From: Candidatus Moraniibacteriota bacterium
GTDB lineage: Bacteria > Patescibacteriota > Minisyncoccia > Moranbacterales > GCA-2747515
Assembly (NCBI GenBank): GCA_942490825.1
Contig: CALNYG010000015.1
Coordinates: 88,073-152,072, forward strand
DNA length: 64,000 nucleotides
Reading direction: 5' to 3'
A program made the translations under genes and the position numbers. The first letter of the stretch is position 1. The number at the start of each line of letters is the position of its first letter. A model generated the notes under the pieces. That model was given only the letters and a program-made list of their open reading frames with translations, had not been told where the DNA came from and did not search any database. Below, piece by piece: positions 1,847 through 40,951 of this stretch.

Positions 1847-2394
1847 GTCATTCCCGTTCGTAGCGAAGCGTAGGGGAGAGGGAATCTAGGATGATTGAAT
1901 TTACAGTTTACAGATGAAATTCAGTTTATAAAATAACTTAAAATTTCACGCACTGGATCCCCGTCTACGCGAGGATGACATGAATTAGAGTTTTTTTAAA
2001 AATTCGCAGGAACCAGTTTTACAACTGGTTCCGAAACGTTTTTGCTACGTTCAATATTATCCCTAAAATTTTTCACAAAACTATTTCAGAAACGTTAGGA
2101 TCGGGTTGTAAAACCCAATCCTGCAAAATCTAGGAGAAATAAATTTACAGTTTACAGATGAAATTCAGTTTATAAAATAACTTAAAGTTTCACGCACCTG
2201 GATCTCCGCCTACGCGGGGATGACACGATCAAGATGGTTTGTTGTATTAAAAATCCAATCTAGGGTCGACCCTAGATTGGATTTTAGTGTTTGGTGAAAG
2301 TAAAATCTTATAAAAAAGTTTAATGATTTTCTTTAGGAGATTCTTCACTGCGTAAATTTTTTTTACAAAAAATTAACTACGTTCAGAATGACAG
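1847..2394. repeat. intergenic hairpin-repeat cluster R1
   Basis: Contents: 1847-1980 is a large imperfect hairpin (arms gtcattcccgttcgtagcgaagcgtaggggagagggaatc and ggatccccgtctacgcgaggatgac). 2009-2040 and 2089-2122 are GC hairpins abutting GAAACGTT. 2127-2225 is a direct repeat of 1883-1980 with a 46-nt identical core. 2250-2285 is a perfect 36-nt palindrome. 2339-2394 is module A (gattcttcac...cgttcagaatgacag). Confidence 0.85.
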
Positions 2395-3656: not shown

Positions 3657-3974
3657 CCGGATAAATTATTTTCTATCTATAAAACGCGATAAATCGACGT
3701 TTCTACAAAAGAAAATATATTTTCCGGAATGATATGTCTGATGAATGATCTTTCTGTGGGGAATTTTTCACTTCATAAATTTATCTGAGATAAATTTATT
3801 ACGCCTGTCTGCCGACAAAGGCAGGTTCAGAATGACAGAAAAACTTATTGGGTGGATTGCGGTGTCTCTCCCTACGGTCATTTCTCGCAATTACGGTAAA
3901 TCTTTTGGAGTTTCGGAAAATGTTGAATGGTAAAAAGCCCGTGCGGCAAACCTGTCTTTTTGGCAGATAGGCAC
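3657..3974 (+). repeat. intergenic hairpin-repeat cluster R2
   Basis: 3657-3736 is module C, a long AT hairpin closed by TTCCGGA/TCCGGAA and followed by TGATA. 3761-3838 is module A with an extra nested GC hairpin (cctgtctgccgacaaaggcagg). 3936-3974 is the AGCCCGTGCGGC unit with a nested hairpin. Confidence 0.85.
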
Positions 3975-20748: not shown

Positions 20749-21204
20749 ATGAAATGTCCGTTTTGCAGAAAAAAACAAGAAACAAAAGTAATCGATTCTC
20801 GGGAGGTGAAAAGTGGTCGAGCAGTGCGTCGACGACGGGAATGTTTAAAATGTAGTGAGCGTTTCACGACTTATGAGGATGTTGAAGTTGTGCGTTTAAC
20901 GATAGTTAAGCGAGATGGGAGTAAAGAGGAATATGATAGAAAAAAGATAGAGGAAGGAATTCGACGTGCTTTGAAAAAACGTCCTATTAATGAAGAACGT
21001 ATTGATCGATTATTGAATGAGATTGAATATGATATTCGAGCTAAAGAAAAAAGATCAATGGCTAGTCGTGAAATTGGGCGGATTATTATGGATAAATTGC
21101 GAGAAGTGGATGATGTGGCATTTATTCGTTTTGCTAGTGTTTATAAATCTATTGGTTCAGCGAGTAGTTTCAGTAAGGTTATTCAAGACTTAATGAAAGA
21201 TTAA
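20749..21204 (+). CDS. nrdR: transcriptional repressor NrdR
   Basis: N-terminal Zn ribbon MKCPFC...CLKC followed by an ATP-cone domain. 151 aa. Confidence 0.9.
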   Translation: MKCPFCRKKQETKVIDSREVKSGRAVRRRRECLKCSERFTTYEDVEVVRLTIVKRDGSKEEYDRKKIEEGIRRALKKRPINEERIDRLLNEIEYDIRAKEKRSMASREIGRIIMDKLREVDDVAFIRFASVYKSIGSASSFSKVIQDLMKD

Positions 21205-21208
21205 TTTT

Positions 21209-21427
21209 ATGGAAATTAAGGTGAAAGTTATTACTCGAGCTAGAATGAATAAGGTTGAAAAAGTGGAGGATTATTATGTTGTGAGGACTTCGGCTGTTCC
21301 TGATTCTGGTAAGGCTAATGTTGCAGTACAAAAATTATTAGCTAAATACTTTTCTATTGGAAAAAGTAAAATTAATATTTTGAAAGGTGAAAAATCTAGG
21401 ATGAAGATTGTTTCGATAGAATATTAG
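21209..21427 (+). CDS. DUF167 (YggU-like) family protein
   Basis: 72 aa. ...GKANVAVQKLLAKYFSI...ILKGEKSR.K resembles YggU/DUF167. Confidence 0.55.
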   Translation: MEIKVKVITRARMNKVEKVEDYYVVRTSAVPDSGKANVAVQKLLAKYFSIGKSKINILKGEKSRMKIVSIEY

Positions 21428-21530
21428 TTTTTTATATTTTTTGTGAATTTAAAAAATTATCCGGAATCTAGAAAGCTTTAAGATTGCTAATAAAGTTTTA
21501 AGTTCAATTTTTATCTGAAATTCTGAATAA

Positions 21531-21732
21531 ATTATTTTTTCACTGCGTTACAAAATAATTTTTCAGGATGACATAGTCAGGGAGTTTTGTGAATTTCTGT
21601 AGGGGATTCTTCACTTCTTTATTTTTTCTAACGAAAAAATAAATCCGTTCAGAATGACATGTAAATTAGATGACAGGAATGTTCTATAATTTCGAAAAAT
21701 GATAAATAGTGAAAAGCCCGCGCGGCGAGCGC
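21531..21732 (+). repeat. intergenic hairpin-repeat cluster R3
   Basis: Module B at 21531-21574 (ctgaataaattattt...aaataatttttcaggatgacat). Module A at 21605-21659. AGCCCGCGCGGCGAGCGC unit at 21715-21732, 49 nt upstream of comEC. Confidence 0.85.
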
Positions 21733-21780
21733 TTTTTTTATTTTAGGGAATATTAATTTTTTTAGTAAATTTTTTGAAGT

Positions 21781-23229
21781 ATGAAAAAATTGCACATTTC
21801 TCAGGTTTTTCTTTGGGCGATGATTTCTTTGATTAGTGGAATAGGTTTAGGATTATTCTTTGGTTTGCCAAGGGATTATTTTTTATTTATTTTTTTAATT
21901 TTGATTTTAACTGTAGGTATTTTATTTTATCGGAGTGCTTTTTTTGGTTTTTCGATTTTGATGATTTGTTTTTTGGCTTTGGGTTTTTGGCGGGGTAGTC
22001 AATCGATTGAAAAGGCTAATGATATTTCTTTGATTGATACTGAAATTCAAGGGGAGGTAAAAGTTGTAAAAGCTCCTGTGAGAAAGAGTTATTATTCGTC
22101 TGTTATTGTTCATTTTCGAGATCCAGATTTTAAGGTTTTAATAAAAGCACCTAAACATACGGATATTGTTTATGGTGATAAATTGAATTTAAAATGTAAT
22201 TTGACTGTTCCGGAAAATTTCGATGATTTTGATTATCGGATGTATTTGGCGATGAGGGATATTAAATATATTTGTGATGAATATGAGTTTGAGAAAATTG
22301 ATCATGAAAAAACGATTCTTTCTATTTTGGCGGAATGGCGGATGAAAATGGAGGGTAATATTAATCTTTTGATTCCAGCTCCGCAATCTGCTTTGGCGAA
22401 TGGTTTGATTTTTGGTGGGGATGATCGACTTTCGGAAGATTTGAAAAGTGATTTTTCGCGAACGGGGATGACGCATATTGTTGCGGTTTCGGGTTATAAT
22501 GTTACGGTGATTGCGATGGTTGTAATGTCGGTGGCGATTTTTTTGGGTGCTTGGAGGAAGCAATCGGTTTGGTGGGCGATTGGGGCGGTTTTGTTTTTTG
22601 TGGCGATTATTGGTTTTCCACCGTCGGGTATTCGGGCGGCGATAATGGGATCGTTGGTTTTGGTGGCGGTTATTTATGGTCGGGCGGGAAGTATTGCCGG
22701 AGCAATTTGTTTTTCGGCGGCGGTGATGTTATTTTTTAATCCTTTGTTATTGAGATATGATGTGGGTTTTCAGCTTTCGTTTTTGGCGACGTTGGGAATT
22801 ATTTTGATTTATCCTATTTTTGAGAATTATTTGGTTTCGAGATTTAAGGTTTTTGGTTTGACTGAGATTATTTTTTTGACTATTTCGGCTCAGCTTTTTG
22901 TGTTGCCGATTATTATTTATAATTTTAATGTTTTTTCGAATATTTCTTTGGTGGCGAATATTTTGATTTTGCCTATTGTTCCGTTGACGATGTTTTTTGT
23001 GTTTTTTGCGATGGTGGCGAGTTTGGTGTTTTGGCCGTTGGCGGTTTTATTGGCTTGGTGTGCTTATTTTCTTTTGTTTTATGAGGTTTGGGTGGTGAAT
23101 TTCTTGGCTGATTTGGGTTGGAGTTGTGTGGAGATTGGGGATTTTAATGTTTGGTGGTATGTTTTGTATTATTTGGTTTTGATTGAGGGATTGAGAATTT
23201 GGTATAATAGGAAAGTAGATGATAATTAA
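21781..23229 (+). CDS. comEC: ComEC/Rec2 family DNA-uptake channel, short form without a metallo-beta-lactamase domain
   Basis: N-terminal TM helices plus an OB-like region. The competence domain contains GMTHIVAVSGYNVTVIA. It ends at 482 aa with no HxHxDH motif. Confidence 0.8.
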   Translation: MKKLHISQVFLWAMISLISGIGLGLFFGLPRDYFLFIFLILILTVGILFYRSAFFGFSILMICFLALGFWRGSQSIEKANDISLIDTEIQGEVKVVKAPVRKSYYSSVIVHFRDPDFKVLIKAPKHTDIVYGDKLNLKCNLTVPENFDDFDYRMYLAMRDIKYICDEYEFEKIDHEKTILSILAEWRMKMEGNINLLIPAPQSALANGLIFGGDDRLSEDLKSDFSRTGMTHIVAVSGYNVTVIAMVVMSVAIFLGAWRKQSVWWAIGAVLFFVAIIGFPPSGIRAAIMGSLVLVAVIYGRAGSIAGAICFSAAVMLFFNPLLLRYDVGFQLSFLATLGIILIYPIFENYLVSRFKVFGLTEIIFLTISAQLFVLPIIIYNFNVFSNISLVANILILPIVPLTMFFVFFAMVASLVFWPLAVLLAWCAYFLLFYEVWVVNFLADLGWSCVEIGDFNVWWYVLYYLVLIEGLRIWYNRKVDDN

Positions 23230-23244
23230 TATATTTTTTAAAAT

Positions 23245-23976
23245 ATGAAATGTAAACTTTGCCTACAAGAAAAGAAACTTTGTAAAAAATCTCATATAAT
23301 TCCTAATTTTACCTATAAAAGAGAGTTATTTAGAAATAGTAAAAATAATAGTGCTATTTCTTTCGATATAAAAAGTGGTAAAAAAAGAAATATAAATACT
23401 GGAGAATATGAGTCAAATATATTATGTGAAGAATGTGACAATAAAATCATAGGAAGTCTGGAGGATTATTTCTCAAGGATTCTTTATGGAGGAAAAACAA
23501 AAGACGATATAAGAAATGGTATGATAAGACAACAAGATGGATTGGAATATGCTTTAGTTAAAAATGTTGATTATAAAAAAATAAAGCTATTTTTATTATC
23601 AATTATCTGGAGAGCTAGTATTTCAAGTAGACCATTTTTTAGACATGTTGATTTAGGTCCATATGAAGATAAAATAAGAAAATTTATTTTTGATAATGCA
23701 GAAGTTTCTGCTGATTTTTGTCCCTGTTCTATTTTTTCTTTTAAAAAACATTTTTTATTGGAGAAATCTTTTTTTAATCCTGTAAAAAGTAAGTTGGGTT
23801 TTAGTAGAGTTTATCAGTTTTTTATTGGAGGACTTCAGTATAATTTCGTAATAACAGAAAAAGAAAGTGACCCTTCGGTTTTAGAGTCAGCTTTGAAGGA
23901 GAATGGTGAATTAAAAGTGATTAGTTTTAGAGAAGGTGTAGGCGATACCTTGTTGAAAAGATATTTTAAAAATTAA
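23245..23976 (+). CDS. hypothetical Zn-ribbon protein, possible divergent HNH-like nuclease
   Basis: CKLC...KSHIIPNF...(44 aa)...NILCEECDNKI recalls the CxxC / H-I-I-P / N...LCxxC layout of HNH motifs, but the spacing is atypical. AT-rich. 15 nt separate it from the comEC stop codon. Confidence 0.45.
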   Translation: MKCKLCLQEKKLCKKSHIIPNFTYKRELFRNSKNNSAISFDIKSGKKRNINTGEYESNILCEECDNKIIGSLEDYFSRILYGGKTKDDIRNGMIRQQDGLEYALVKNVDYKKIKLFLLSIIWRASISSRPFFRHVDLGPYEDKIRKFIFDNAEVSADFCPCSIFSFKKHFLLEKSFFNPVKSKLGFSRVYQFFIGGLQYNFVITEKESDPSVLESALKENGELKVISFREGVGDTLLKRYFKN

Positions 23977-24357
23977 AAATACCTTAACAAGTTATTCTTT
24001 GTGTTACGGTGGAGAGAAGTGAATAGTTACGAGGAATTTGGTTGATTATTGAAATTAAATGTGATAGTACTTATAAAAGTACTTATAAAATTTATCTTTT
24101 TTGGCTTGCAAGAGGGTTAACAATTAAAAAATGGTTTATGTTTTTCATAAGATTTATGAAAGTGATAAAATTTTTAATTAAGTCAACATTAATATTTAGT
24201 AATATGGTAGAAAATGAATTGTTAGAGAATGATATAAATATTTTGTTAGCCAAAGAATGTAAATAATCTTTTTAAAAAAATAAAAAACCAGTTGTTGAAA
24301 CTAGTTTGGGTAAGTTTATATTGAATTTTTGCAAAGAAAAAAGCATAAAACTTTTTA

Positions 24358-24446
24358 AGGGAGGGAGAAGGAGGACTGAGGAGATGTGTACATTGTACAC
24401 AGATAGGAAGGGGGGGATGATGGAGTTTAAAAAATTGTTATGCTGA
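24358..24446 (+). other. purine-rich GC island with a candidate 20-codon small ORF
   Basis: AAGGGAGGGAGAAGGAGGACTGAGGAG is followed by ATG 24384 and a TGA at 24444-24446 (MCTLYTDRKGGMMEFKKLLC). The 15-nt palindrome GTGTACATTGTACAC lies at 24386-24400. The flanks gcataa(a)ac and gttatgc can pair. Confidence 0.3.
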
Positions 24447-24560
24447 CTTTTTCTTACTGCGGTAAGATTAAGCTACTTATATTCTATAACATTTAAATTA
24501 TTTGGCAAGGGGGTGGCTGTGGATAACTTTTTTAATTTAGAGTTTGGTGATTGTACGAGA

Positions 24561-24851
24561 TCCTGAATAAATTATTTTTCCATTGCATTACAAAATAATT
24601 TTTCAGGATGACATAGGCGGGGAGATTTGTGATTTTATTTGGGGGATTCTTCACTGCGTAATTTTGTCTGACGACAAAACTACTTCGTTCAGAATGACAG
24701 GTAAATTTAATGTTATCAAAAAAATATAAAAATTATATTGTAGGGGCTGTGCCTTGTGCCTGCCCATGCGATGAACTTTAAATTTTACGCAAAGGGCGAC
24801 CACAAGGGATCGCCCCTACAAATTATGTATCATAGCCCGTGCGGCAGGCAC
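24561..24851 (+). repeat. intergenic hairpin-repeat cluster R4
   Basis: Module B at 24561-24614. Module A at 24645-24700. GTAG/CTAC-bounded long hairpin at 24738-24820 (tgtaggggc...gcccctaca). AGCCCGTGCGGCAGGCAC at 24834-24851. Confidence 0.85.
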
Positions 24852-24871
24852 TTTATTTCTTTAAAAATAAA

Positions 24872-24900
24872 TTAGACAAAACGGTTTTTTATCGTATACT
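24872..24900 (+). promoter_or_regulatory. candidate promoter of pepN
   Basis: TTAGAC, a 17-nt spacer, then TATACT. It lies 21 nt downstream of the AGCCCGTGCGGC unit. Confidence 0.35.
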
Positions 24901-24965
24901 TATAGTTATAGAAAGATTATAAATATTTAAAATTAAAATTATGTCAAAAATGAAAAAAAACTTGT

Positions 24966-27404
24966 TTGAAAGATTATTGTCCGTTGAATTTTGATTTGGA
25001 TTCAGTTTATTTAGAATTTGATTTGGCGAAAGACACAACTCAGGTTTTAAGTAAAATGGATTTTTCTAATTTTAAAGATAAACAATTGAAACTTTATGGA
25101 GAAGATTTGGAGTTGAAAGAAGTTTTATTGAACGATGAAAAAGTTGATTTTGAAAAAGTTGATGGTGCGATTATTTTGAAAGATTTGCCAGAAAAATTTT
25201 CGCTTTCAATAAAAACAATTATTCATCCGGCGAAAAATACAGCGTTATCAGGCTTGTATCAGTCGGGTGATATTTTAGTTACGCAGAATGAACCACAAGG
25301 ATTTCGGCGAATGACTTATTTTACAGATCGTCCAGACGTGATGACAAAATATACCACAAAATTAATTGGAGATAAAAAAGAATTTCCAGTGATGCTTTCA
25401 AATGGAAATGCGATTGGAAGTGGCGAATTGGAAAATGGAAAACATTTTGCGATTTGGGAGGATCCTTTTAAAAAGCCTTCTTATCTTTTTGCGGTGGCGG
25501 CGGGTGAGTTTGATTTGTTGCGAGATAAGTTTGTTACGATGAGTGGTCGGGAAATTGATCTGAGGATTTATACTGATCCGGGAGAATCTCACAAAGCTAA
25601 ATTTGCGATGGAGTCGTTGAAAAATTCTATGAAGTGGGATGAAGAAAAATTTGGTTTGGAATATGATTTGAATATGTATATTATTGTGGCGGTGAGTTCT
25701 TTTAATGCCGCTGGGATGGAAAATAAGGGATTAAATGTTTTTAATAGTCGTTTTGTTTTTGCTGATCCAGAAAAATCTACCGATGTTGATTTTATGAATG
25801 TAGAAAAGGTAATTGCTCATGAATATTGTCATAATTGGACAGGTAATCGTGTTACTTGTCGTGATTGGTTTCAACTTACTTTAAAGGAAGGATTGGTAGT
25901 TTTTCGTGAACAATTATTTAGTGGAGATGTGCGTGATCAAACTATTCAAAGAATTTCTGATGTGGAGTTTTTAAAATCTTATCAATTTTCTGAGGATGCT
26001 TCACCTAATGCTTATCCGATTAAACCGAAAGAGTATTTAGAAATAAGTAATTTTTACACTCCGACGGTTTATGAAAAGGGTGCGGAAGTGATTCGTATGA
26101 TGTACACTTTATTGGGGAAAGAAGGTTTTCGTAAGGGGATGGATTTGTATTTTGAGCGACATGATGGTGATGCGGTTACGACGGAAGATTTTGTTTCGGC
26201 GATGGAGGATGCGAATGATTTTGATTTATCTGATTTTGTTCATTGGTATGATGACGCGGGAACTCCAAAATTAAAAGTTGAGGAAAATTTTGAAAATGGT
26301 AAATATTCTTTGCGAATCAGTAAAGATAAGAAAGCGATGTTACCTTTAAATTATGCTTTATATAATAGAAAAAATGGTGAAGTTTTAAAATCTGAAACTT
26401 TGCATTTAGTTGATGAAATTAAAATTGAAGTTGATGCGGATGAAAAGCCTGTTTTATCTTTGAATCAAAATTTTTCTGCTCCAGTCGTTCATGATTATAA
26501 ACTTTCTTTGAAAGACAGTTTGTTTTTAGTGGAATATGATGAGGATTATTATAATCGTTATGATGCGGTACAAAGTGTTTATTTGGAAGATATTATAAAT
26601 GGAAATGTTGAGAATAGTATTGAAGCTTTTGGTAAAGTTTTGAATTCTGATGTGAATGATTATTTGAAAGCTTACATGTTGAAATTGCCGAATTATCCGA
26701 CAATTTTTGGTCGTTATGAAAAAGATTTGCCAATTGAAAATATTTATCAGCAAATTGATAAAATGAAAAAAGCGATTCGAGATAAATTTAAAAAGGAATT
26801 GCGTGAAATCGTTGATCGGGCGAGCGGGACTGAAGCGACTGATTTATCACAAGAATCAATGGGAAGGCGAGCGATTAAAAATATTGTATTAAGTTATTTA
26901 GATGATAAAGATTTAGCTAAAGAAGATTATGCTAAATCTTTAACAATGACAGAGAAAATAGTTGATTTGCAAATAGCAAAAAATGATGAGTTGTTTGATG
27001 ATTATCTTGAAAAGCATAGAGATGATAAAGATATGGTGGTTAAATATTTTCAGATTATTTCTTTGAATAGTGAAGAGAATCCGATTGGCAAAATTAAAGA
27101 GTTATTGAAATCTGATCTATTTGATTACAAAGTGCCTAATTTAATTCGGGGATTGATCGGTGTTTTTGCGATGAATTATCGATTCTTTTTTACGGAAGAG
27201 GGTGTGGATTTTTTCGTTGAAGAATTGAAAAAGATTGATAAAATGAATCCAGAAATGGGATCACGACTTTGTAGTTCAATTAATCTGTATCCTAAATTGG
27301 AGGAAAAAACTCAGGAAATGGTTTATAATAAACTGAAAGGTTTTTATAAAAGTGATGATATTTCAAAAAATGCTTATGAAATTTTAAATAAGATTTTTGG
27401 ATAA
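24966..27404 (+). CDS. pepN: aminopeptidase N (M1 family)
   Basis: GAMEN-type motif AAGMENKG. Zinc site HEYCHNWTGNRVTCRDWFQLTLKEG. The TTG start comes from the ORF track and the start is uncertain (see findings). Confidence 0.9.
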   Translation: MKDYCPLNFDLDSVYLEFDLAKDTTQVLSKMDFSNFKDKQLKLYGEDLELKEVLLNDEKVDFEKVDGAIILKDLPEKFSLSIKTIIHPAKNTALSGLYQSGDILVTQNEPQGFRRMTYFTDRPDVMTKYTTKLIGDKKEFPVMLSNGNAIGSGELENGKHFAIWEDPFKKPSYLFAVAAGEFDLLRDKFVTMSGREIDLRIYTDPGESHKAKFAMESLKNSMKWDEEKFGLEYDLNMYIIVAVSSFNAAGMENKGLNVFNSRFVFADPEKSTDVDFMNVEKVIAHEYCHNWTGNRVTCRDWFQLTLKEGLVVFREQLFSGDVRDQTIQRISDVEFLKSYQFSEDASPNAYPIKPKEYLEISNFYTPTVYEKGAEVIRMMYTLLGKEGFRKGMDLYFERHDGDAVTTEDFVSAMEDANDFDLSDFVHWYDDAGTPKLKVEENFENGKYSLRISKDKKAMLPLNYALYNRKNGEVLKSETLHLVDEIKIEVDADEKPVLSLNQNFSAPVVHDYKLSLKDSLFLVEYDEDYYNRYDAVQSVYLEDIINGNVENSIEAFGKVLNSDVNDYLKAYMLKLPNYPTIFGRYEKDLPIENIYQQIDKMKKAIRDKFKKELREIVDRASGTEATDLSQESMGRRAIKNIVLSYLDDKDLAKEDYAKSLTMTEKIVDLQIAKNDELFDDYLEKHRDDKDMVVKYFQIISLNSEENPIGKIKELLKSDLFDYKVPNLIRGLIGVFAMNYRFFFTEEGVDFFVEELKKIDKMNPEMGSRLCSSINLYPKLEEKTQEMVYNKLKGFYKSDDISKNAYEILNKIFG

Positions 27405-27415
27405 AAATATTTTTT

Positions 27416-27583
27416 GTGCCTGTCTGCCGAACAGGCAGGCTCGCCGCACGGGCTTTTTGGATTCAAGATTTTGAATCCTTGTAAATATTCGTTGCAATAC
27501 GTTTTTGATTATTTCCTTCCGAGATCCTGAATAAATTATTTAATTTTTTTTACAAAAAATGAAATAATTTTTCAGGATGACAT
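27416..27583. repeat. intergenic hairpin-repeat cluster R5
   Basis: 27416-27454 is an inverted AGCCCGTGCGGCGAGC unit with a nested hairpin, 12 nt after the pepN stop and followed by T5. 27459-27478 is the hairpin GGATTCAA/TTGAATCC. 27525-27583 is module B. Confidence 0.85.
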
Positions 27584-27603
27584 GACGAGAGTTATTAATT
27601 AAT

Positions 27604-27635
27604 AAAAAACTTATTCTTTTTAGAATAAGTTTTTT
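27604..27635 (-). terminator. terminator downstream of the CMD-family gene
   Basis: Stem AACTTATTCT/AGAATAAGTT flanked by A6 and T6. Confidence 0.6.
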
Positions 27636-27656
27636 AATTTTAAATTTTTTTCAAAA

Positions 27657-28183
27657 TTATTTTAGATCAGGTAAAACTCCTAAGGCATCATTGAATCTGT
27701 TGATGTAATTAAAAAGTCCGATGACTGATGTGATTTCTACAATTTCACAATCGGTGAAATTATCCTTCATTTTTTTAATTAATTTCGGATCAATATTGTA
27801 AGCATGCTCAGTTGTGGAAATAGCATATTCAATTGCTATTTGATCTCTTTCATTAGAAACTTCTTCTAATTTTTCAATTTCTTCTTCAGTTATTCCTAAT
27901 CCAATTAATTTTGACTTTGCAACTCCGACACAGAATTCACATTTGTTTTGTTCTGAGACTACATGAGCTACTTTCCATTTTAATAATTGTGGAGCGGGCT
28001 CATTATCCATCAACGATTTAAAAAGTTGGAAAAAACTTATTAACGTATTTTCGCAATTTGCCATTACGCGCATCCATTTTGGTACTTTTCCGATGTTTTC
28101 TGTCATCTGATCAAACAAATGTTTTGTTTGCCGGTTACTTCTTCATCAGTAACAAGGTGGACAATTGGTCGAATTTCACTCAT
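27657..28183 (-). pseudogene. carboxymuconolactone decarboxylase (AhpD-like) family gene with an N-terminal frameshift
   Basis: The ORF 27657-28118 has a CEFCVG motif and CMD-like helices. Upstream, ATG 28183 encodes MSEIRPIVHLVTDEEVTGKQ, which joins ...KHLFDQMTENIGKVPKWM only if the run at 28122-25 had one more base. Confidence 0.6.
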
Positions 28184-28255
28184 ATTTTAAATTTTTTTAA
28201 ACTTATTATAATTTAATTTTAACATATTTTATTTTGCATTTGTCAAGCTTAAAAT

Positions 28256-28286
28256 AAAAAACTACCAAGCTTATTGGTAGTTTTTT
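28256..28286 (-). terminator. terminator downstream of the PEGA-domain gene
   Basis: Stem ACTACCAA/TTGGTAGT flanked by A6 and T6. Confidence 0.6.
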
Positions 28287-28312
28287 AAATTTTAATAATT
28301 CACTTTTTAAAA

Positions 28313-29923
28313 TTAAAATAAAGTATTTTCTTCAGGGAATGCAATTTGAAATAGTGAATTTATATTATCACTATTTTTATCAATAAAGAATAAAATATCA
28401 TTGCGGTGATCGCTAATTATTTTAGTTTTATCAGTGCTTAAGGTAGAGATTGTTTGAGGATTGCTTTTTCCACGATCATCCATTTCAATTATTTTAATCT
28501 CATTTCCAGAAGAGAAAATTACGTGTTCATAATCCTTGGAAAAGTGAATATTTTCTATTTTTTTAGATCGTCTAGTGATTACTTTATTCTCATCTTCTTC
28601 TCGTTGAGGCTGGTCTTTCCATTCTCGAGTGAAATAAACAAATATTTCAGATTTAGAGTAGTAAATTAATTTTTTTCCGTCATTAGAAAAATGAGCTCCA
28701 ACTATTCCAGTAGCTAGTTTTTTAGAATAAATATTTTTATCACCTTTATTGTATAAGTAACAATCACCAGTCTTATCATCTATTGATACAATTCTATTTT
28801 TATCATAAGCGATTAATCGGTATTGTGAATTTTTACCATTATCATTTTCATATGAAGTAATTTCTTTTAATTTCGTAGCTTTGATATTATCATCATAAAG
28901 CAATTCTCTTTCCTTGTTTAAAATATAAATGCCGTCATCAGCAAAATCATATGCTAAGGTTTCAGGATAAATTTCTTCATATTCTAAAGCGGTTTCATCT
29001 TCTAAATTAAAGGATATCGTATATAATTTTTGGTTGCTTAAAAAGTAAAGTGATTCTTTATCTTTTGGATGCCAACGAACATCAGATATTAATTCTCTTT
29101 TTTTATCTTCTGTTAAGGCATCGTTATTTTCTTCAATAAATATTTTATCGGATAGATAAAAATAACTGTCTGTTTTTAGGTTAAAAATAGCATAGTCTTT
29201 AAATTCTTCAGTAACGTTTTGATTTGTAATATTTTCATTTTTTAAGTCAAAATTACGTTCAGTTTCTCCTATGGTTTTATTATCTCTGTTTTCACTTTCG
29301 ATATTTTCATTGTTAACTTGACGAATAACTGGCACAATAATTGATGAGCTTGCAGGAGACCATTCTATATTTTCATATGTATTATCAGTAAATTTTACGT
29401 TTTCTAAAACGATTTGATTTTGGATTTCATTATCATCTGTATTAATTATGTTAACTTCTAGACCAATACTTTTTTGGTTTGTGTATGCAAATACAAATTC
29501 TTCAGGTGCAGGAAAAAAATTATCGATATTAGGTGTATTAATTTTTGTACGTTTGTAATTTTCTCGAACTAATAAAACATTCCATAGTTCGGTGGATAAT
29601 CCGCTATGGATAGAAATGTTTTTGGTCCAAGGTTTAAAACCGTCAGCTGTAATTTCGATATTATAATTTCCGTGACGTAATCCGTTGATCTGATAAGAGT
29701 CATTAATTATATTTAGGTAACGACTTTTTGGTTTTTTACCATTAACTTTTATTGTTACATTTTGAGGGTTGGCTTTAACTGTTAATGATCCAGAATGAAG
29801 CCAGATATCTCTGATAAAATCACGTCGATATCCAAAAACTAATCCAATAACAATGGTTGTAGTTAAGATGCAAGAAAAGGCTAATGTGAAAAAAAATACT
29901 TTTCTAGGTAATGGAGTTTTCAT
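28313..29923 (-). CDS. membrane-anchored PEGA-domain protein with a probable beta-propeller
   Basis: N-terminal TM helix. A PEGA-like segment (SLTVKANPQNVTIKVNGK...GNYNIEITADGFKPW). A long beta-rich C-terminal region resembling TolB/WD40-like repeats. Confidence 0.5.
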   Translation of the reverse strand: MKTPLPRKVFFFTLAFSCILTTTIVIGLVFGYRRDFIRDIWLHSGSLTVKANPQNVTIKVNGKKPKSRYLNIINDSYQINGLRHGNYNIEITADGFKPWTKNISIHSGLSTELWNVLLVRENYKRTKINTPNIDNFFPAPEEFVFAYTNQKSIGLEVNIINTDDNEIQNQIVLENVKFTDNTYENIEWSPASSSIIVPVIRQVNNENIESENRDNKTIGETERNFDLKNENITNQNVTEEFKDYAIFNLKTDSYFYLSDKIFIEENNDALTEDKKRELISDVRWHPKDKESLYFLSNQKLYTISFNLEDETALEYEEIYPETLAYDFADDGIYILNKERELLYDDNIKATKLKEITSYENDNGKNSQYRLIAYDKNRIVSIDDKTGDCYLYNKGDKNIYSKKLATGIVGAHFSNDGKKLIYYSKSEIFVYFTREWKDQPQREEDENKVITRRSKKIENIHFSKDYEHVIFSSGNEIKIIEMDDRGKSNPQTISTLSTDKTKIISDHRNDILFFIDKNSDNINSLFQIAFPEENTLF

Positions 29924-30075
29924 AAAAATATATTAAATTATTCTTTTAAATGCTATAATTAATATACCTTTATTATTTGTTAAATACAAGAGAAGAATGG
30001 ATTGGTAGAGTGTAAAATTGTGGTAATGTAAATTCATATTTTTTAAAAGATTGGAAATTAATAAAAAATAAAATT

Positions 30076-30549
30076 ATGGAGTTTTTATCTAATCTGGGTG
30101 TTTCTTTTGCTGACTTTGTTTTAATTATTATTGCTTTGGGCTTGGCTATTTTTGTAGTGGCAATAAGTCAAGTTTATTGGATAAGAAGGACTGTGATCTC
30201 TTCCTTTATTTCTTTGGCTTTAGTGAATATTATGCCAGATAAATTTGTAGATCTTAAGCCTGAAATGGGTTTGATTTATTTTTTAATTTTCACTGTTTTG
30301 ATTATGATTTTTTGTAATAATAAATTGTTTGAAGCTGCTTATTGGGAAGGTGATCGACTTGATTTTGGAATGATTATTTTTGCGTTTTCAGTGCTGATAT
30401 TTTTTGTTGCGATCGCGTTTCATTTTTTAGATTATGATTATTTTGCTAAAGTTTTTACAGAAGAGTTTTATGATTTTTTTAGAAAAAACTTCTTTGTTAT
30501 TGCTCTAATTCCAGTTATTTTGGGAATGATTTTTGGCGAGAGAGAATAA
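30076..30549 (+). CDS. hypothetical polytopic membrane protein
   Basis: 157 aa with four or five hydrophobic helices. No motif recognised. Confidence 0.5.
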   Translation: MEFLSNLGVSFADFVLIIIALGLAIFVVAISQVYWIRRTVISSFISLALVNIMPDKFVDLKPEMGLIYFLIFTVLIMIFCNNKLFEAAYWEGDRLDFGMIIFAFSVLIFFVAIAFHFLDYDYFAKVFTEEFYDFFRKNFFVIALIPVILGMIFGERE

Positions 30550-30773
30550 TTTTTAAAGCTTTTATAAAATGAGTAAAAAAGAATTAATTGAACAATATAA
30601 TAATGAAAAATTAAATTTTTTGGTTAGTAATTTTATAGGATTACATAAAGTTTAGTTATCTAATTTTATTATTAATTTTTTTTATATAGTATAAAGATTC
30701 TAAAAAACTAAAATCTAATCTAAATTAAACTGAAAATATTTTATTATTCAGTTTTTTTAATTTCATGTATCAC

Positions 30774-30791
30774 AGCCCGTGCGGCGAGCAC
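30774..30791 (+). repeat. AGCCCGTGCGGCGAGCAC unit (copy 6)
   Basis: Exact core preceded by tgtatcac. It lies 18 nt upstream of the -35 of the A2M promoter. Confidence 0.8.
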
Positions 30792-30808
30792 AGAAATTCA
30801 GAAGACTT

Positions 30809-30838
30809 TTGTTTTAAATACTTGTTCAATGCTATAAT
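30809..30838 (+). promoter_or_regulatory. promoter of the alpha-2-macroglobulin gene
   Basis: TTGTTT (30809-30814), an 18-nt spacer, then extended -10 TGCTATAAT (30830-30838). Confidence 0.45.
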
Positions 30839-30867
30839 AAAAATATTAATAATTTAAAAATAAAACT

Positions 30868-33800
30868 ATGAAAAAAGCCTTTTTGCTTTTGGGAATGATT
30901 ACTTTATTTTCTTGTTTTCCAATGTTTCGATCAGTGTTTCAACAAGAGGCTAAAGCAGAAGATAAGCCAGAGCCAAGTTTATACTTGACTGGTAAAAATA
31001 TATATCAGCGAAATGGTTTGATTTCCTTTACATCACAAGAATCTGCAGTAGTTGAAGTTGAAGGTAGAGATCTTGAGGAAAGTGAGATTACGATAGATGT
31101 TTATGATGCAGATATGCAGGATGTTTTAAGATTTTTAACTTATGATGATGAGGATAAGCAAATTAATAGTGAGGTTTCTTTGGAGGGTAGAGATGAAATT
31201 GCTACTTTTGTAACGAAATGGAAAGATAGCTTTGAATTGCCTTTTGGAGATAAGAATGGCGTTTTGCTAATACATGCTAAAGCTGGTGAATTGGAAATCT
31301 ATTCATTTGCAATCCGTTCTAATGTTGGGGCTGTTGTTACAGAAGTTCAAGATGAACTCTTAATTTGGTCTCAAAATTTTGATACTAAAAGAAAAGAGAA
31401 TAATCAAAATGTTGTTTTTTATAGTTTAAAAAATAATGTCTTAAAGCAAAAAAGTGTTACTACAAACAGTGAGGGAATTGCAACAACTCCAATTTCTAGT
31501 CAGTATGATATAGCAATTGTTGGTGATGGGGATGACTTAGCTTTTGTCCCAATTGGTATGCGACAATTAGGTTATGGAGGTAATTATTCATTTGCAAATC
31601 AAAGTCCAAATAGTAAATTTTTTATTTTTACTGATAGATCTTTATATAAACCAGGAGATAAAATTTATTTTAAATCAATTTTACGTGATGATAATGATGT
31701 AAATTTTGTTATTCCATCAGGAAATTGGCGAGCGAAAATTGTTTATGGCTGGGGTGATAGTGAAGAGATTATTAGAGAGCAAAATTTTACTGTTAATGAA
31801 TATGGAACTTTTGATGGAGAATTTAAATTACCTGAAAATGTAAATACAGGTGAATATAGATTTGTTGTTGAAAAAATAGATGAGGAGCAGAAGAGTAGTG
31901 ATTATTGGTGGGATGAGGGTTATGGTGAGGTTTATTTTCAAGTAGAACATTACCGTAAGCCAGAATACACATTGGACATGGAGGTAGATCAAACCCAACT
32001 TATAAATGGTAAGAATATTACTTTTAATATTGAGGGTGAATATTTTTCAGGACAGCCTTTAAATGGAGTGGAAGTTGAGTACACTGTTAGAGAAAGTGAT
32101 TTTTACAATAGTACTTTTTATTATCCACAACAAATAGATAATTTTAATTACAGACGTTATTATGGTAAAGAAATTGAAAAAGGAAAGGCAGTTTTAGATG
32201 CTGATGGTTCAGCTCAAGTTTCTGTTAATACAGATATTAAAGATGGGGAAAATAAAATTTATTCTATTGAATTAAGTTATGCATCGGAAGCTGGTGGTGA
32301 AAATGTGAGGGAACAAAAAAATGTTTTAGTTTTTGCCGGAGAATATAATATTTATCGAGAAAGTCATAAATATAGTTTTCATGTGGATGAGGAAATTAAA
32401 TTAGATTTAATTTTAAAAGAAAACAAAGAAAAAGCAGATTTAGCAGGTAAAAAGTTAACAGTTGCTCCAAAGCGAATTTGGTGGGAAAAAGAGTTGGTTG
32501 ATGATTTGAGAGACAAGTCACGCTATAATTACAAACGTAAAGAAGAGATTCTTGAAAATTTTGAAATTATTACAGATTCTCAAGATAGGGCGGTATTACG
32601 TTTTAATCCACAAAAATCTGGATCGTATGAGTTTAAAGTTAAGAGTATGGATTCGCAAGATAATAGTATTGAGAAGACTTTTAGTGTCTGGGTTTCTGAT
32701 AAGTATTATTCTTATAGTGGACAGGGTTCAAAAGAATTAAATGTGATTCTTGATAAAAATAGTTATGAACCAGGAGAAAATGTTACAGCTAGTATCTCTT
32801 CAGAAATGCCAGACAGAGATATTTTATTTTCAGTGGGAAGAAATTTTATTCACGAATATAAAGTTGTTTCTATGAATGGAAATTCTGTTAATGTTGATTT
32901 TCAGGTATCGGATGATTATATGCCAAGTGCTAAAGTGGAAGCAGTTAGTTTCTCAAGTGACAAAATTAATACAAGCTCTACAAGTCTTCAGGTTTCAGCC
33001 CAGAAGAAAAGATTGGATATTTCAATAGAAACTGATAAAGATATTTATAGTGCTGGTGAGGAAGTGAAGGCAACAGTTAAAGTTACAGATCAAAATGGAG
33101 AACCGCAAAAATCTGAAGTGGCTTTATGGGCTGTGGATAAAGCTTTATTTGAATTATCGGATCCTTCTGGACAAAAGTCTTTTGATTCTTTTTGGAATTA
33201 TCGATATGGAAATGTTAGTTTCACACATTCATTGCGAGGTCTGTCAATTAATGCTGCTGAGAAGGGAGGTTGTTTTAAAGCAGGGTCTCAAATATTAATG
33301 TCAGATAGTTCGACTAAAAATATTGAAGAGGTTAAAGTTGGAGATTTTGTTTTGACCAGAGAAAATGAAAATAGTGAAAACTTAGTTAAGGAAAAAGTTA
33401 TAAAAACTCATAATGTCGAAGTTGATGGATATTTTGTTATTAATAATAATTTAAATGTTACAGAAAATCACGTTGTTCGAGTAAATGATGAATGGAGACG
33501 TGCTGATCAAATTAAGATTGGAAATTATTTAATTGATCGAGATGGTAAAAATGTGACAGTTGAATCGATTGAATGGAGAAAAGAAAAAACGATGGTCTAT
33601 AATTTAGAGATTGAAGATAAACATTCCTATTTTGTGAATGGTGTATGGGTTCATAATGGAAAAAGTGGAGGTGCTGGACGGTCTGTTTTTAAAGATGTAG
33701 CTTATTGGAATCCGAAGATTGTAACTGATAAAAATGGTGAAGCAGAAGTTTCTTTTAAATTATCTGATGATTTAACAACCTGGGCATTTTCTGCAGTTGG

Positions 33801-35856: not shown

Positions 35857-35973
35857 TATAAAAAATAAATTAAGATTTTATAATTTTGAAATGTAGTAGA
35901 TGGTTTTAAACCATTTGTTATTTATATTTTTAAGCTATTGTTATTATAGATACAAAATTATATTTTAAAAAAA

Positions 35974-36876
35974 ATGTTGAAAAATTATTGGAAAATTTCT
36001 ATAGCTTTAGGTTGTTTGATGGTAGTAGTTTTAATTATTTTTTTACAAACTGGAGTTGAAGAAATTGATTCTAAGGTTAATTTAAATGATCAAGTGATTA
36101 GTTCTAATAATGATTTATTTTTTGATCAGCAACTTTTTGATTATGGAATTAGAAGTGTTAAAAATGATCGAAATATTCAAGAAGAGATTAAAGGCGTGAT
36201 CGTTCCGCATCACTTATTAGCAAGTCATATTATTGCTGATACACTTCATGAGATTTTACGACCAGAAATTAAAAAAGTGATTATTATTGGTCCAGACCAT
36301 TGGGAAAAAAATTCTGGATCTATTTCGACCAGTGATTATGATTGGGAAACGCCTTTTGGAAATATTATTTCTAATAATGATATAATTAATTCTCTAAATA
36401 ATGCTGATTATATAAATATCGAATCAAATGTTTTAAAAAATGAACATTCGATTGGCGGATTAATTCCTTTTATTTCTTATTATTCTTCGGATATTGAAAT
36501 AGTTCCTTTGGTAATAAGTCAGAAAATAACTGAAGAAGAAATTGATGATATTGTTGAGAGGTTGTATGAATTATCTCAAGATGAATCGGTAGCGATTGTA
36601 GTTTCAGTAGATTTTTCACATTATTTAACAAGTACAGAAGCAGAAAGGAATGATAAAATTTCTCTTCAGGTGATCGAAAATAAAGATTATGATGAGTTAC
36701 TCGGTTTTAATAATGACTATGTTGATTCTCCGCAATCTTTGGTGATTTTTTTGAAAACTCTAGACCATTTAGAGATGGATAATTTAAAAGTTTTACATAA
36801 TACAACTTCAGGTAAGATGATGAATGATGAGTCTATAAAAGAAGTAACTAGTTATTTTGGAATTATTTTTTGGTAA
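35974..36876 (+). CDS. Memo-like / AmmeMemoRadiSam system protein B family, membrane-anchored
   Basis: GVIVPHHLLAS, IIIGPDHW and NEHSIGGLIPF resemble Memo/LigB-superfamily motifs. It has an N-terminal TM helix. Confidence 0.55.
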   Translation: MLKNYWKISIALGCLMVVVLIIFLQTGVEEIDSKVNLNDQVISSNNDLFFDQQLFDYGIRSVKNDRNIQEEIKGVIVPHHLLASHIIADTLHEILRPEIKKVIIIGPDHWEKNSGSISTSDYDWETPFGNIISNNDIINSLNNADYINIESNVLKNEHSIGGLIPFISYYSSDIEIVPLVISQKITEEEIDDIVERLYELSQDESVAIVVSVDFSHYLTSTEAERNDKISLQVIENKDYDELLGFNNDYVDSPQSLVIFLKTLDHLEMDNLKVLHNTTSGKMMNDESIKEVTSYFGIIFW

Positions 36877-36949
36877 ATTTATTTTACAAATCTAGTTTAT
36901 TTATGTATTATTGGAAAATATTTTATTAATTTTTTAAAATAATTATAAT

Positions 36950-37855
36950 ATGGTTTGTGGAAAATGTGGAATAAGTATTTCAGATAATGAAAATCTTTGT
37001 GAGAATTGTAAGTCTGTTAATGATCCAAATGTAAATTTAGACAAGAAGTCTCAATTGAGAAAATGGTTTAGTGTTATTTTTTTAATTTCGTTGATAATTC
37101 CTATTTTTGGCGGAAGAATTTTAGGAATTGTTAATAACAAATCAGTCAATCAAGGCGATCAGGCTTTAGAAAAGTTAAATGAGGGAGATTCAGAAGAGGC
37201 TATTCAAGAAATAGATAAAGCATTGAAGATAACTGTAGACAAGGATAATAAAGTAATTTTGCTTGTAAATAAAGCTTATGCTTATATATATGAAGGAAAT
37301 AATGAGATGGCTTTAAATTCTCTTAAAGAAGCTCTTGCTTTAACTAAAGAAGGAGAGTCAGATTATTATTTAATTTCTGGTGAAATTGCTATTTTAGAGA
37401 ATAATGCTGGAATTGCTTTAGAAAATCTTAATAAAGCTCATGAATTAAAACCTGATGATTTTCAAATTAATAGTTCGTTATTTAATTTCTATATCGATGA
37501 AAATATGAATTCGGTTGATGTTGCTAAAGCTTTGGAATATGCTAAAAAGGCAGATGAAGTTGCTGAAGTTATAAATAAAGATGTTGCCAAAGAAAATCTA
37601 GCCGTTGCTTATTATCACAATTATATGACTGACGAAGCTTTGGAAATATTTTTGTCTTTCGATTTAAATAAAAAACCTTATACAGCAAGTTGGATTGCGT
37701 ATAGTTATCTCGATAAGGAGGATGAACAAAATGCAAAAGTTTATTTTCAAAAGGCTAAGGATTTAGGTATTGAATTAAATCCAGAAATAGAAGCGTTTCT
37801 TTCTGGGACAGAAACAGAGACTCTTAATGAGGTTACTGAAGATGTTGATAACTAG
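36950..37855 (+). CDS. zinc-ribbon, TM and TPR-repeat protein
   Basis: N-terminal CGKC...CENC, one TM helix, then TPR-like helical repeats (EAIQEIDKALKI..., ALNSLKEALAL...). Confidence 0.55.
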   Translation: MVCGKCGISISDNENLCENCKSVNDPNVNLDKKSQLRKWFSVIFLISLIIPIFGGRILGIVNNKSVNQGDQALEKLNEGDSEEAIQEIDKALKITVDKDNKVILLVNKAYAYIYEGNNEMALNSLKEALALTKEGESDYYLISGEIAILENNAGIALENLNKAHELKPDDFQINSSLFNFYIDENMNSVDVAKALEYAKKADEVAEVINKDVAKENLAVAYYHNYMTDEALEIFLSFDLNKKPYTASWIAYSYLDKEDEQNAKVYFQKAKDLGIELNPEIEAFLSGTETETLNEVTEDVDN

Positions 37856-37911
37856 TAATTTTGTTAATTTTATTCTATAATAAGAATAGTTAATCATTAA
37901 AATATAAAAAT

Positions 37912-38676: not shown

Positions 38677-38700
38677 GAGATTATTTTAAAATATATTTTT

Positions 38701-38733
38701 AAAGGAATTGGTCTTGTACTAATTCCTTTTTTT
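38701..38733 (+). terminator. terminator after the SPFH gene
   Basis: Stem AAAGGAATT/AATTCCTTT followed by a T run. Confidence 0.6.
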
Positions 38734-38745
38734 CGTTTGGTATTC

Positions 38746-38870
38746 CGTAGGGAACGCACATGTGCGTTCCCTACGATGGAATGGTGAATGTGATAAAATT
38801 GAAGTTTTATGTGGAGGTTTGTCAGTGGCAAACGCTTACTATTATGTATCATAGCCCGTGCGGCGAGCAC
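38746..38870 (+). repeat. intergenic hairpin-repeat cluster R6
   Basis: 38746-38775 is the perfect 30-nt palindrome CGTAGGGAACGCACATGTGCGTTCCCTACG. attatgtatcat plus AGCCCGTGCGGCGAGCAC lies at 38853-38870. Confidence 0.85.
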
Positions 38871-38893
38871 TGTTATTTTTCTTAAAAATCGTC

Positions 38894-39672: not shown

Positions 39673-39699
39673 ATTATACTTGAAAATTAATTTTGTTTT

Positions 39700-40452: not shown

Positions 40453-40472
40453 GTTTTAAAAAACCTAATTGT

Positions 40473-40951
40473 GTCATTTCGACTGAAGCGTAGCGGAATG
40501 GAGAAATCTCAAAGTTTACAGACAATCATAAAGTTTTGAGATTTCTCGACTTCGCTATCGCTACACTCGAGATGACAATATAAAGGTTTTTTAAGAGGTC
40601 TGATAAATAAAGTTTTTTGAAAAACTCATCATTATGTTATTTTTGAAATTTAAAATAATGATGTGTTTTGTTTTTATATTTTAAAATTAGTTTTCTTGTC
40701 ATTCTGAACGAAATAATTTTTATAAAATTCTTAATGTTTTTGGTAAAAATTATGTAGTGAAGAATCTTAGTAAGTTTTTCTGACACTTTAGTTTTAAAGT
40801 TTCATGATTCTCTGTGGGGGATTCTTCACTTCATAAATTTATCTGCGATAAATTTATTACGTTCAGAATGACAGGAAGTTTATAGAGTTTCGAAAAATGT
40901 TGAATGGTGAAAAGCCCGTGCGGCGAGCCTGCCTGTTCGGCAGACAGGCAC
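40473..40951. repeat. intergenic hairpin-repeat cluster R7
   Basis: 40473-40577 is a large imperfect hairpin (gtcatttcgactgaagcgtagcggaatggagaaatctc ... gagatttctcgacttcgctatcgctacactcgagatgac). Module A occurs inverted at 40697-40766 and forward at 40820-40874. The AGCCCGTGCGGCGAGC unit with nested hairpin is at 40913-40951, upstream of gyrA. Confidence 0.85.

Follow-up and report, generated by a model that had tools for sequence, protein, structure and literature searches.

Hairpin repeats of a Candidatus Moraniibacteriota genome: a probable long form of TGTC/CGTC-tagged REPs and a possible link to a GIY-YIG nuclease

Introduction

Module A is a hairpin repeat present in six copies in a 64,000-nt stretch of DNA from a Candidatus Moraniibacteriota bacterium (contig CALNYG010000015.1, positions 88,073-152,072, forward strand, GCA_942490825.1), the whole of which is called the window here. 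Its sequence makes it very probable that module A belongs to the TGTC/CGTC-tagged superfamily of repetitive extragenic palindromes (REPs), of which it would be a lineage-specific long form: a small DNA hairpin element that carries no gene. The same unit, with exact flanks, occurs in at least 17 phyla, including Patescibacteria, and the only protein family that recurs beside it (at least 119 loci, among the matches listed) is a Slx1/UPF0213-like GIY-YIG nuclease of about 95 amino acids. On balance, we lean towards a reading in which the window copies are orphan long-form TGTC/CGTC REPs spread in trans, the likely agent being the GIY-YIG nuclease whose gene such units bracket in other genomes.

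Copies and fold of module A

A covariance model built from the module A copies and run on the window with filters off returns exactly six matches (62.7-87.7 bits, E-values of 1e-12 to 1e-18; Table 1). The next matches are copies of another local repeat, module B, at 34, 21 and 19 bits. Since the model returns just these six, the list of copies drawn up in the initial annotation of this DNA is complete for the window: all six are confirmed and there is no seventh. Five of the six copies have the exact 5' flank GATTCTTCACT, the exception being the copy at 3761 with GAATTTTTCACT, and the 3' flank, (C/G)GTTCAGAATGACA, is present in all of them. When up to two mismatches are allowed, the 14-nt 3' flank matches the window seven times, against 0.40 expected, and none of 100 shuffles reaches seven; the seventh match, at 17750, is weak and lies in a gene. 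A conserved 5' extension of about 25 nt is also part of the module. All copies are intergenic, and their neighbours are rnpA, two tRNAs, nrdR/yggU-comEC, pepN and gyrA.

Base pairing between the two flanks of a copy (ATTCT/AGAAT, then AC/GT after a 2x2 internal loop, then a small asymmetric loop) makes each copy one long hairpin. It is topped by an AT-rich stem of 8-11 bp whose loop has 3-4 nt, or 21 nt in the inverted copy. The ATTCT/AGAAT basal stem is found in five copies; the copy at 3761 has ATTTT, a C-to-T change which gives a G-T wobble. In the 2x2 loop, the + strand has TC/TC and the opposite strand GA/GA, and it is the latter strand that folds slightly better. The end of every copy is ...AGAATGACA, or TGTC-ATTCT when read on the opposite strand, where a complete copy runs TGTC-ATTCT-GA-AC-[apex]-GT-GA-AGAAT-CCCC. 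The first four stem bases are ATTC, and A-T pairs occupy the first two positions of the stem. The tails at the untagged end are CCCC(C/T), CTCC or CTTA.

Covariation of the apical stem was examined in an alignment of the six window copies and two copies from a Ca. Moraniibacteriota metagenome-assembled genome (MAG), locus L014. Paired cells amount to 96.5%, compared to 85.8% in shuffles, none of 500 of which reaches the observed value. Double-sided changes (AU/UA/GC) occur at 5 of the 11 apical pairs, in 15 cells, and controls in which the register was slid reach at most 52% paired. The cores are thus alignable and form one homologous 11-bp stem; they are not unrelated sequences. The initial annotation had described every core as self-complementary, with five different stems that vary in a compensatory manner. 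Each window core does fold as described, and the compensatory variation is borne out by the comparison with shuffles and slid registers; the stems vary, but their independence was overstated, as 5 of the 11 pairs of a single homologous stem change. A GC hairpin reported as nested in the copy at 3761-3838 is real, but it lies beside the AT stem and not inside it, between that stem and the 3' flank. It is an inverted copy of the hairpin of module F, a further local repeat (compare 27412-27436 and 40925-40950), which indicates that one module landed inside another.

The basal stem covaries as well. A generic unit pattern in which the three inner stem bases are left free (TGTC-AT-NNN-GA-..-GA-NNN-AT) gave 335 matches, and in 316 of them the two NNN are fully complementary. 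Eight stem types are represented, while TGTC, AT and GA..GA are fixed. An invariant mismatch within a covarying stem points to recognition of one folded strand. Likewise, an unpaired tetranucleotide tag combined with a basal stem and a GA/GA mismatch that marks the strand is consistent with recognition as a folded single strand.

Occurrence in other genomes

The unit was sought in other genomes by a scan for exact flanks, TTCTTCACT-N(20-50)-GTTCAGAATGACA, with one genome per species. The scan gave at least 119 loci, with 190 copies within them. The hosts are Bacteroidota, Chlorobiota/Ignavibacteria, Chloroflexota, Planctomycetota, Nitrospinota, KSB1, Patescibacteria, Bacillota, Pseudomonadota, Desulfobacterota, Acidobacteriota, Verrucomicrobiota, Deinococcota, Caldisericota, Cyanobacteria and others. 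They include isolates (Chryseobacterium, Chlorobaculum, Pelolinea, Xanthomarina), some of them with complete genomes. Contamination or an adapter artefact, considered on account of identical 26-mers in many MAGs, was ruled out, since the unit is internal and multi-copy in complete isolate genomes. The flanks had been regarded as a local scaffold: they are indeed near-identical in the window, but the motif is conserved across phyla.

The sequence between the flanks takes several forms. Among the matches listed, the commonest core has 2 nt (82 of 190 copies), which gives a basal 26-nt unit, GATTCTTCACTGCGTTCAGAATGACA, often in tandem arrays. This basal unit has nine stem positions, including the GA/GA mismatch, and a 3-nt loop. 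A 12-nt mini-hairpin core is found in 11 copies, and the remainder, again among the matches listed, have cores of 20-50 nt whose base composition follows the host. Module A is this basal unit, its apical loop being enlarged by an AT-rich palindrome; in two window copies (2339 and 24645), an intact basal GAACG...GCAGTGAAG is still found on both sides of the insert. Forty of the 73 distinct long cores (among the matches listed) contain a perfect stem of 6 bp or more, and for 35 the comparison with shuffles is significant. Across phyla, the rule is therefore a conserved handle with a free apex, which is usually but not always a hairpin.

The clearest exception to the hairpin core is found in KSB1 MAG BS750m-G10 (loci L015, L017, L028, L037, L045, L054 and L105), which has C-rich cores of 26-27 nt without a hairpin, such as CCCAACATCACCATTCCCCTCCCTC. 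On the TGTC strand, these cores are G-rich, with several G-runs. Head-to-tail arrays of the basal unit with a period of 34 nt surround a GIY-YIG gene in Nitrospina sp. LS_NOB (L050, 400-2100) and in Xanthomarina (L100, 800-2000). They are interleaved with two other TGTC/CGTC subfamilies, and Xanthomarina repeats only the 3' arm (GTGAAGAATCTA).

Association with GIY-YIG genes

GIY-YIG comes first among the Pfam families of 116 open reading frames (ORFs) adjacent to the unit, and no transposase reaches a similar rank among the matches listed. Clustering places the GIY-YIG protein in six loci (among the matches listed) from Bacteroidota, Nitrospinota, Bacillota and Pseudomonadota. The units directly abut the GIY-YIG gene, and two units may bracket it with their tags outward. 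Bracketing is seen in loci L034, L050, L084, L211, L212, L215 and L217 and in others, and long-form units also act as brackets (L034, L044, L087 and L201). In five loci of the independent sample described below, a unit starts at -34, -34, -34, -39 or -48, counted from the ATG along the gene strand. Three of the five also have an inverted unit after the stop codon, at +1, +1 or +13, so that the tags of the two units face outward. Units linked to GIY-YIG genes in other genomes end in CTA.

An independent sample was obtained by seeking homologues of one unit-adjacent protein and fetching the surroundings of eight different proteins. All eight genes of the subfamily have TGTC-type units within 200 nt: 20 units lie in 5.7 kb around the genes, compared to four in the remaining 20.8 kb. 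The catalytic motifs (the GIY, YIG, Arg and Glu residues) are invariant in 14 members of the subfamily, and the solved structure nearest to the bracketed nuclease is 1zg2, UPF0213 BH0048. A phylogenomic survey of 2006 treated the bacterial Slx1-like "minimal" GIY-YIG group as a repair nuclease and did not mention repeats. In the literature searched, a limited search which is no proof of novelty, we found no paper that links GIY-YIG genes to REPs, and nothing under YhbQ, COG2827 or UPF0213 that is relevant to hairpin repeats.

In the window, Pfam annotation of all ORFs of at least 100 aa reveals no transposase, no RAYT (Y1_Tnp) and no TnpB, as the initial annotation had stated of such transposases. 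None of 20 viral contigs that contain the unit has a GIY-YIG gene nearby, and there is thus no evidence of a phage vector. Two relatives of the window's host have distant GIY-YIG genes among tRNA-like sequences (L130, 9590-10080, and L172, 7050-7640).

Insertion into this lineage

Relatives were collected by a metagenome scan based on GyrA (80 loci, GyrA 68-78% identical, 1.1 Mb in total). These loci contain no module A copy and no match to the generic TGTC-AT-NNN-GA pattern, and the other local repeats are absent from them or about five times rarer. The gene order upstream of gyrA is conserved in the relatives, where the spacer before gyrA has about 150-200 bp and one terminator-like hairpin; in the window, the spacer has 560 bp and is packed with repeats. 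The absence of copies from the relatives, together with the short, repeat-free orthologous gyrA spacer, implies that the window copies are lineage-specific insertions. A comparison of orthologous sites, proposed in the initial annotation, thus finds the gyrA spacer of the relatives free of these repeats.

The L014 locus has a copy that is 96% identical over 75 nt to 21594-21668 (copy 3), and it also has a tags-outward pair of module A. The window encodes a type IV pilus, comEC and few metabolic genes, a content which fits a genome of the candidate phyla radiation (CPR) type. A replication-strand bias was considered, as five of the six copies have the same orientation, and was rejected because gene orientation is a confounding factor and six copies are too few.

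Relation to known repeat families

Di Nocera, De Gregorio and Rocco described the CGTC REPs in 2013. By their definition, these REPs have at one end an unpaired CGTC tag, which in many repeats is TGTC instead (a CCTC variant is allowed), a stem of 8-9 bp which nearly always opens with complementary A-T at positions 1-2, a loop of 4-5 nt and a short unpaired tail with the consensus CCA (PMC3733652). They are extragenic and multi-copy, with several subfamilies per genome, and pairs with outward tags ("HH") predominate. They include the dRS3 repeats of Neisseria and RPE-4 and RPE-6 of Rickettsia, and some are located within genes. They are reported to lack a dedicated transposase: RAYT or IS200 genes exist in CGTC-bearing species, and none is flanked by CGTC units. 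The published hosts belong to five phyla and are mostly Alphaproteobacteria (PMC3733652). The supplementary species lists include Chlorobaculum and Chlorobium, and the supplementary files hold no sequences that match the unit.

Module A shares with these REPs the tag, the AT-first stem, the tags-outward pair, the extragenic location, the presence of multiple copies, the occurrence of several subfamilies per genome and the lack of a linked transposase. The outward arrangement of tags is that of the one A-A pair of the window (40697-40874), of the pair at 40472-40577 and of the L014 pair. In the A-A pair, formed by copies 6 and 5, the spacer is only about 55 bp, and the layout is the one that brackets GIY-YIG genes in other genomes. 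The tails of module A are C-rich but differ from the consensus CCA. Unlike the published CGTC REPs, module A has an apical hairpin of 25-50 nt in its loop and the conserved 5' extension, and because its loop size departs from theirs it is filed as a variant. The unit also differs from them by its range, at least 17 phyla against the five given in the paper, and the text of the paper, in the parts used here, mentions neither an invariant tandem GA/GA nor a link to GIY-YIG.

The resemblance to the REP/REPIN-RAYT system ("REPtron") lies in the hairpin with an unpaired tetranucleotide tag, in the solitary copies or inverted pairs between genes and in an enzyme gene bracketed by two inverted units, which is a GIY-YIG gene in the case of TGTC units and is seen in other genomes. 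However, module A is tagged with TGTC where that system has GTAG or GTGG, its stem opens with A-T pairs instead of being GC-rich, the bracketed gene encodes a GIY-YIG nuclease and not an HUH Y1 enzyme, and no RAYT gene stands beside the units among the matches listed. The ends of IS200/IS605 elements likewise have an imperfect hairpin in a subterminal position, beside a short fixed motif, and are handled as single strands, but the two ends of such an insertion sequence differ from each other, whereas module A units are all the same, and the window has neither tnpA nor tnpB. Integron attC sites resemble module A in their conserved outer arms, in a self-complementary centre that varies in sequence and length and in conserved mismatches by which one strand is marked; in contrast, the window contains no integrase or cassette array, and the copies are scattered among housekeeping genes. 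An attC identity was rejected, as GTTCAGA has a C where the GTTRRRY core requires R (consensus RYYYAAC / GTTRRRY). The intergenic mosaics of Neisseria (NIMEs), in which repeat families are interleaved with CGTC-type units, recall the order B - A - F of the window; the partner repeats are different, and the host of the window has a small, AT-rich, CPR-like genome.

At the gathering score, Rfam matches only two tRNAs in the window, and at E-values up to 1 it has no match on the units of eight unit-rich loci. Six 12-mers, used as text strings in the literature, gave only irrelevant primer matches.

Proposed mechanism

On the tagged strand, each copy consists of an unpaired TGTC tag, a 5-bp AT-first stem, a tandem G.A/A.G mismatch, two more pairs, a short, asymmetric internal loop and, beyond it, an apical stem-loop whose sequence is free, followed by a C-rich tail. 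The window copies would be orphans: a structure-specific enzyme acting in trans would have multiplied them, recognising the folded tagged strand by its tag, basal stem and G.A mismatch. Propagation would require an intact handle, and the flanks would stay near-identical while the apex drifts under a constraint on folding. A compensatory pattern would follow from an apex constrained only to fold and flanks constrained in sequence. The most likely candidate for this enzyme is the bracketed GIY-YIG nuclease, whose gene would either lie in another part of the genome or have been lost; that this nuclease spreads the units is an idea we put forward tentatively.

With the same reserve, the TGTC/CGTC REPs and the minimal Slx1/UPF0213-like GIY-YIG subfamily might together form a class of mobile elements, of which we found no description in the literature searched. 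Such a class would comprise an autonomous unit of about 370 bp (hairpin - nuclease gene - inverted hairpin) and swarms of orphan hairpins, and would extend across most bacterial phyla, including the CPR. Module A would be its long-form, non-autonomous derivative.

Several observations weigh against this reading. The 64-kb window has no GIY-YIG gene, and its copies would therefore be orphans. For most copies in the at least 119 loci, no GIY-YIG gene is present within 8 kb. The orientation of the flanking units varies, since the tags face inward in L044 and L087 and the units are direct repeats in L100 and L213. In the two relatives with distant GIY-YIG genes (about 35% identity) there are no TGTC units, so any link would be limited to one subfamily. 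The cores were initially said to be hairpins in every case, which holds for all window copies but not for every copy elsewhere: about 20 of the 73 distinct long cores, for instance the C-rich ones of the KSB1 MAG, lack a stem. As about a quarter of the long cores are not hairpins, the apex is not universally constrained to fold. To our knowledge, no biochemical activity of this GIY-YIG subfamily on hairpins has been described, and a nuclease merely homing into hairpins would give the same association.

Alternative explanations

The units could depend on an HUH Y1 enzyme (RAYT/TnpA-REP or IS200/IS605 TnpA) encoded elsewhere, which would bind the hairpin and cut at the tetranucleotide on single-stranded DNA. 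A hairpin with an unpaired tetranucleotide tag and a strand-marking mismatch is what has been established for REP/RAYT and IS608, and a GTAG-tagged REP doublet in the window (24740-24819) leaves room for a RAYT in the genome. We nevertheless regard this explanation as unlikely, because of the TGTC tag and AT-first stem, the lack of a Y1 or TnpB gene in the window, the fact that no transposase recurs beside the unit in the at least 119 loci, and the RAYT and IS200 genes of CGTC-bearing species, none of which is flanked by CGTC units according to the 2013 survey (PMC3733652). Recognition by IS200/IS605 TnpA or RAYT had been suggested in the initial annotation: its idea of a hairpin read in single-stranded DNA is broadly supported, but the TGTC tag and the GIY-YIG neighbours do not support the enzymes it named. 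About equally doubtful is that the GIY-YIG gene is a homing passenger, the units being multiplied by another enzyme or by host replication and repair. Template switching at quasi-palindromes would restore perfect stems with no need for structural selection. The classic GIY-YIG enzymes are homing endonucleases, which cut empty targets rather than their own ends, and the variable orientation of flanking units, the many units far from any GIY-YIG gene and the module inserted in the copy at 3761-3838 agree with such a scenario. Yet a tag, stem and GA/GA that are exact across phyla require a sequence-specific reader, not generic repair, and the fixed spacing of 8-16 nt between unit and ATG, with an inverted partner right after the stop, resembles the ends of an element.

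Selection by the host for a role in RNA or as regulatory DNA (mRNA stabilisers, RNase sites, terminators, insulators) seems even less probable. Such roles have been proposed for REPs in the literature (PMC3733652), all module A copies are intergenic, and convergent-gene sites outnumber divergent ones across phyla (39 to 15, among the matches listed). However, the hairpin is followed by GACAGG(N)AA and not by a T-tract, both orientations to the flanking genes are common (39 vs 57 copies, among the matches listed), and no Rfam family matches. Moreover, the orthologous sites of the relatives lack copies, so these are not needed for the flanking genes, and the strand that folds better, with the tandem G.A, is non-transcribed for five of the six copies. 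Intrinsic terminators in particular were rejected: none of the copies is called as one in 21150-41100, which holds four of the six, and there is no T-tract. The results refute a chance resemblance between stretches of AT-rich intergenic DNA of low complexity, and likewise an artefact of assembly or of adapters, and leave this explanation a negligible probability. The cores are AT-rich, short palindromes are common in such DNA, and a crude scan for ATGA(C/T)A after a 7-mer stem, too noisy in AT-rich DNA, gives 41 matches vs 44.5 in shuffles. Against this stand the count of 14-nt flank matches, the E-values of the covariance model, the covariation controls and the many internal positions of the unit in complete genomes of cultured isolates.

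Other repeats and genes of the window

The other modules had been said to follow the same plan as module A. This is borne out, as each has a hairpin followed by (A/G)ATGACA; the module A model matches module B, and a generic tag-plus-stem scan matches the others. In the module B copy at 21520..21573, the loop (TCACTGCGTTAC) is similar to the central part of the basal A unit. The B+A pair that includes copy 4 shares 80% identity with the pair at 21496-21672 over 177 nt, and three or four sites of the window show the modules in the order B - A - F.

Table 1. Coordinates of module A copies and other repeats in the window
Feature	Position	Strand	Description
Module A copy 1	2339..2394	+	GACA-3' form on + strand, TGTC tag on - strand; core AATTTTTT/AAAAAATT; 85.8 bits
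Module A copy 2	3761..3838	+	5' flank variant GAATTTTTCACT; extra GC hairpin GCCTGTCTGCCGACAAAGGCAGG; 70.5 bits
Module A copy 3	21605..21659	+	11-bp AT stem, perfect; 87.7 bits
Module A copy 4	24645..24700	+	- strand: TGTC-ATTCT-GA-AC-G[29-nt AT palindrome]GCA-GT-GA-AGAAT-CCCC; 86.4 bits
Module A copy 5	40820..40874	+	core as in copy 2; right-hand partner of tags-outward pair; 83.2 bits
Module A copy 6	40697..40766	-	inverted, 21-nt apical loop; left-hand partner of tags-outward pair; 62.7 bits
Module B	21520..21573	+	AT(T/C)CTGAA basal stem, AT-rich extension, then GGATGACA; 31 nt upstream of module A copy 3; 19 bits
Module B	24560..24613	+	31 nt upstream of module A copy 4; 21 bits
Module B, solitary	27524..27582	+	34.3 bits
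TGTC-tagged pair, another subfamily	40472..40577	.	tags outward; TGTCATTTCGAC... and ...CTCGAGATGACA
TGTC-tagged unit	1846-1885		GC-rich subfamily
TGTC-tagged unit	1957-1980		GC-rich subfamily
TGTC-tagged unit	2202-2225		GC-rich subfamily
TGTC-tagged unit, fourth	~60570-60592		GC-rich subfamily
Module F	3937-3951
Module F	10263-10277
Module F	21716-21730
Module F	24835-24849
Module F	27439-27453	-
Module F	30775-30789
Module F	38854-38868
Module F	40914-40928
Module F	46099-46113

A 71-nt direct repeat (1883-1953 / 2127-2197, 93% identical, 244 nt apart) lies beside two TGTC-type units and belongs to a duplicated composite block between 1846 and 2225. The GC-rich motif of module F, GCCCGTGCGGCGAGC, has nine copies in the window, against none expected, and none in the 1.1 Mb of relatives. 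It often has TATGTATCATA or TTTCGAAAAATG..GTGAAAA before it and a second hairpin (CCTGCCTGTTCGGCAGACAGG) and a T-run after it, and downstream of pepN (27412-27458) it is terminator-like. REP-like units with a GTAG tag (GTAGGGGC...) are found at 24740-24819 and 46011-46050, and one of them is an inverted doublet, GTAGGGGCTGTGCC...GGGATCGCCCCTAC. Their presence beside TGTC-type units means that both types coexist in the genome, where a RAYT may exist elsewhere.

Three protein-coding regions may be mentioned. A 1662-aa alpha-2-macroglobulin-like protein (30868-35856) contains a HINT/intein-type domain (PT-HINT, Intein_splicing, Hint) at residues ~800-930, between the bait-region and A2M domains. 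A very hydrophobic, AT-rich ORF of 126 aa without Pfam match (39700-40080), located between an MBL-fold gene and a 111-aa gene, is absent from relatives with conserved synteny and is possibly a lineage-specific insertion or a spurious ORF. At the end of the window, just past the TGTC-type unit at ~60570-60592, a RhuM-plus-Fic/DOC protein followed by an AAA_13/AbiEii-like ATPase (60627-63845) has the appearance of a small island related to defence or toxins.

Implications

The window extends the family of CGTC-type REPs to small, AT-rich, CPR-like genomes. It indicates that the apex of these REPs tolerates large covarying insertions, the invariant part being the tag, the stem and the tandem G.A mismatch, which are conserved nearly letter for letter across phyla. 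The CGTC REPs have been catalogued since 2013 with the explicit statement that no dedicated enzyme is known (PMC3733652). If the pairing with GIY-YIG genes is what it seems, it would supply the "missing" enzyme of these repeats. Because the bracketing of an intact minimal GIY-YIG gene is consistent, it offers a concrete candidate enzyme that can be purified, and mobilisation becomes directly testable. Should the candidate prove correct, a nuclease class other than HUH would join the biology of hairpin elements, and the widespread bacterial Slx1-like/UPF0213 proteins would gain a function.

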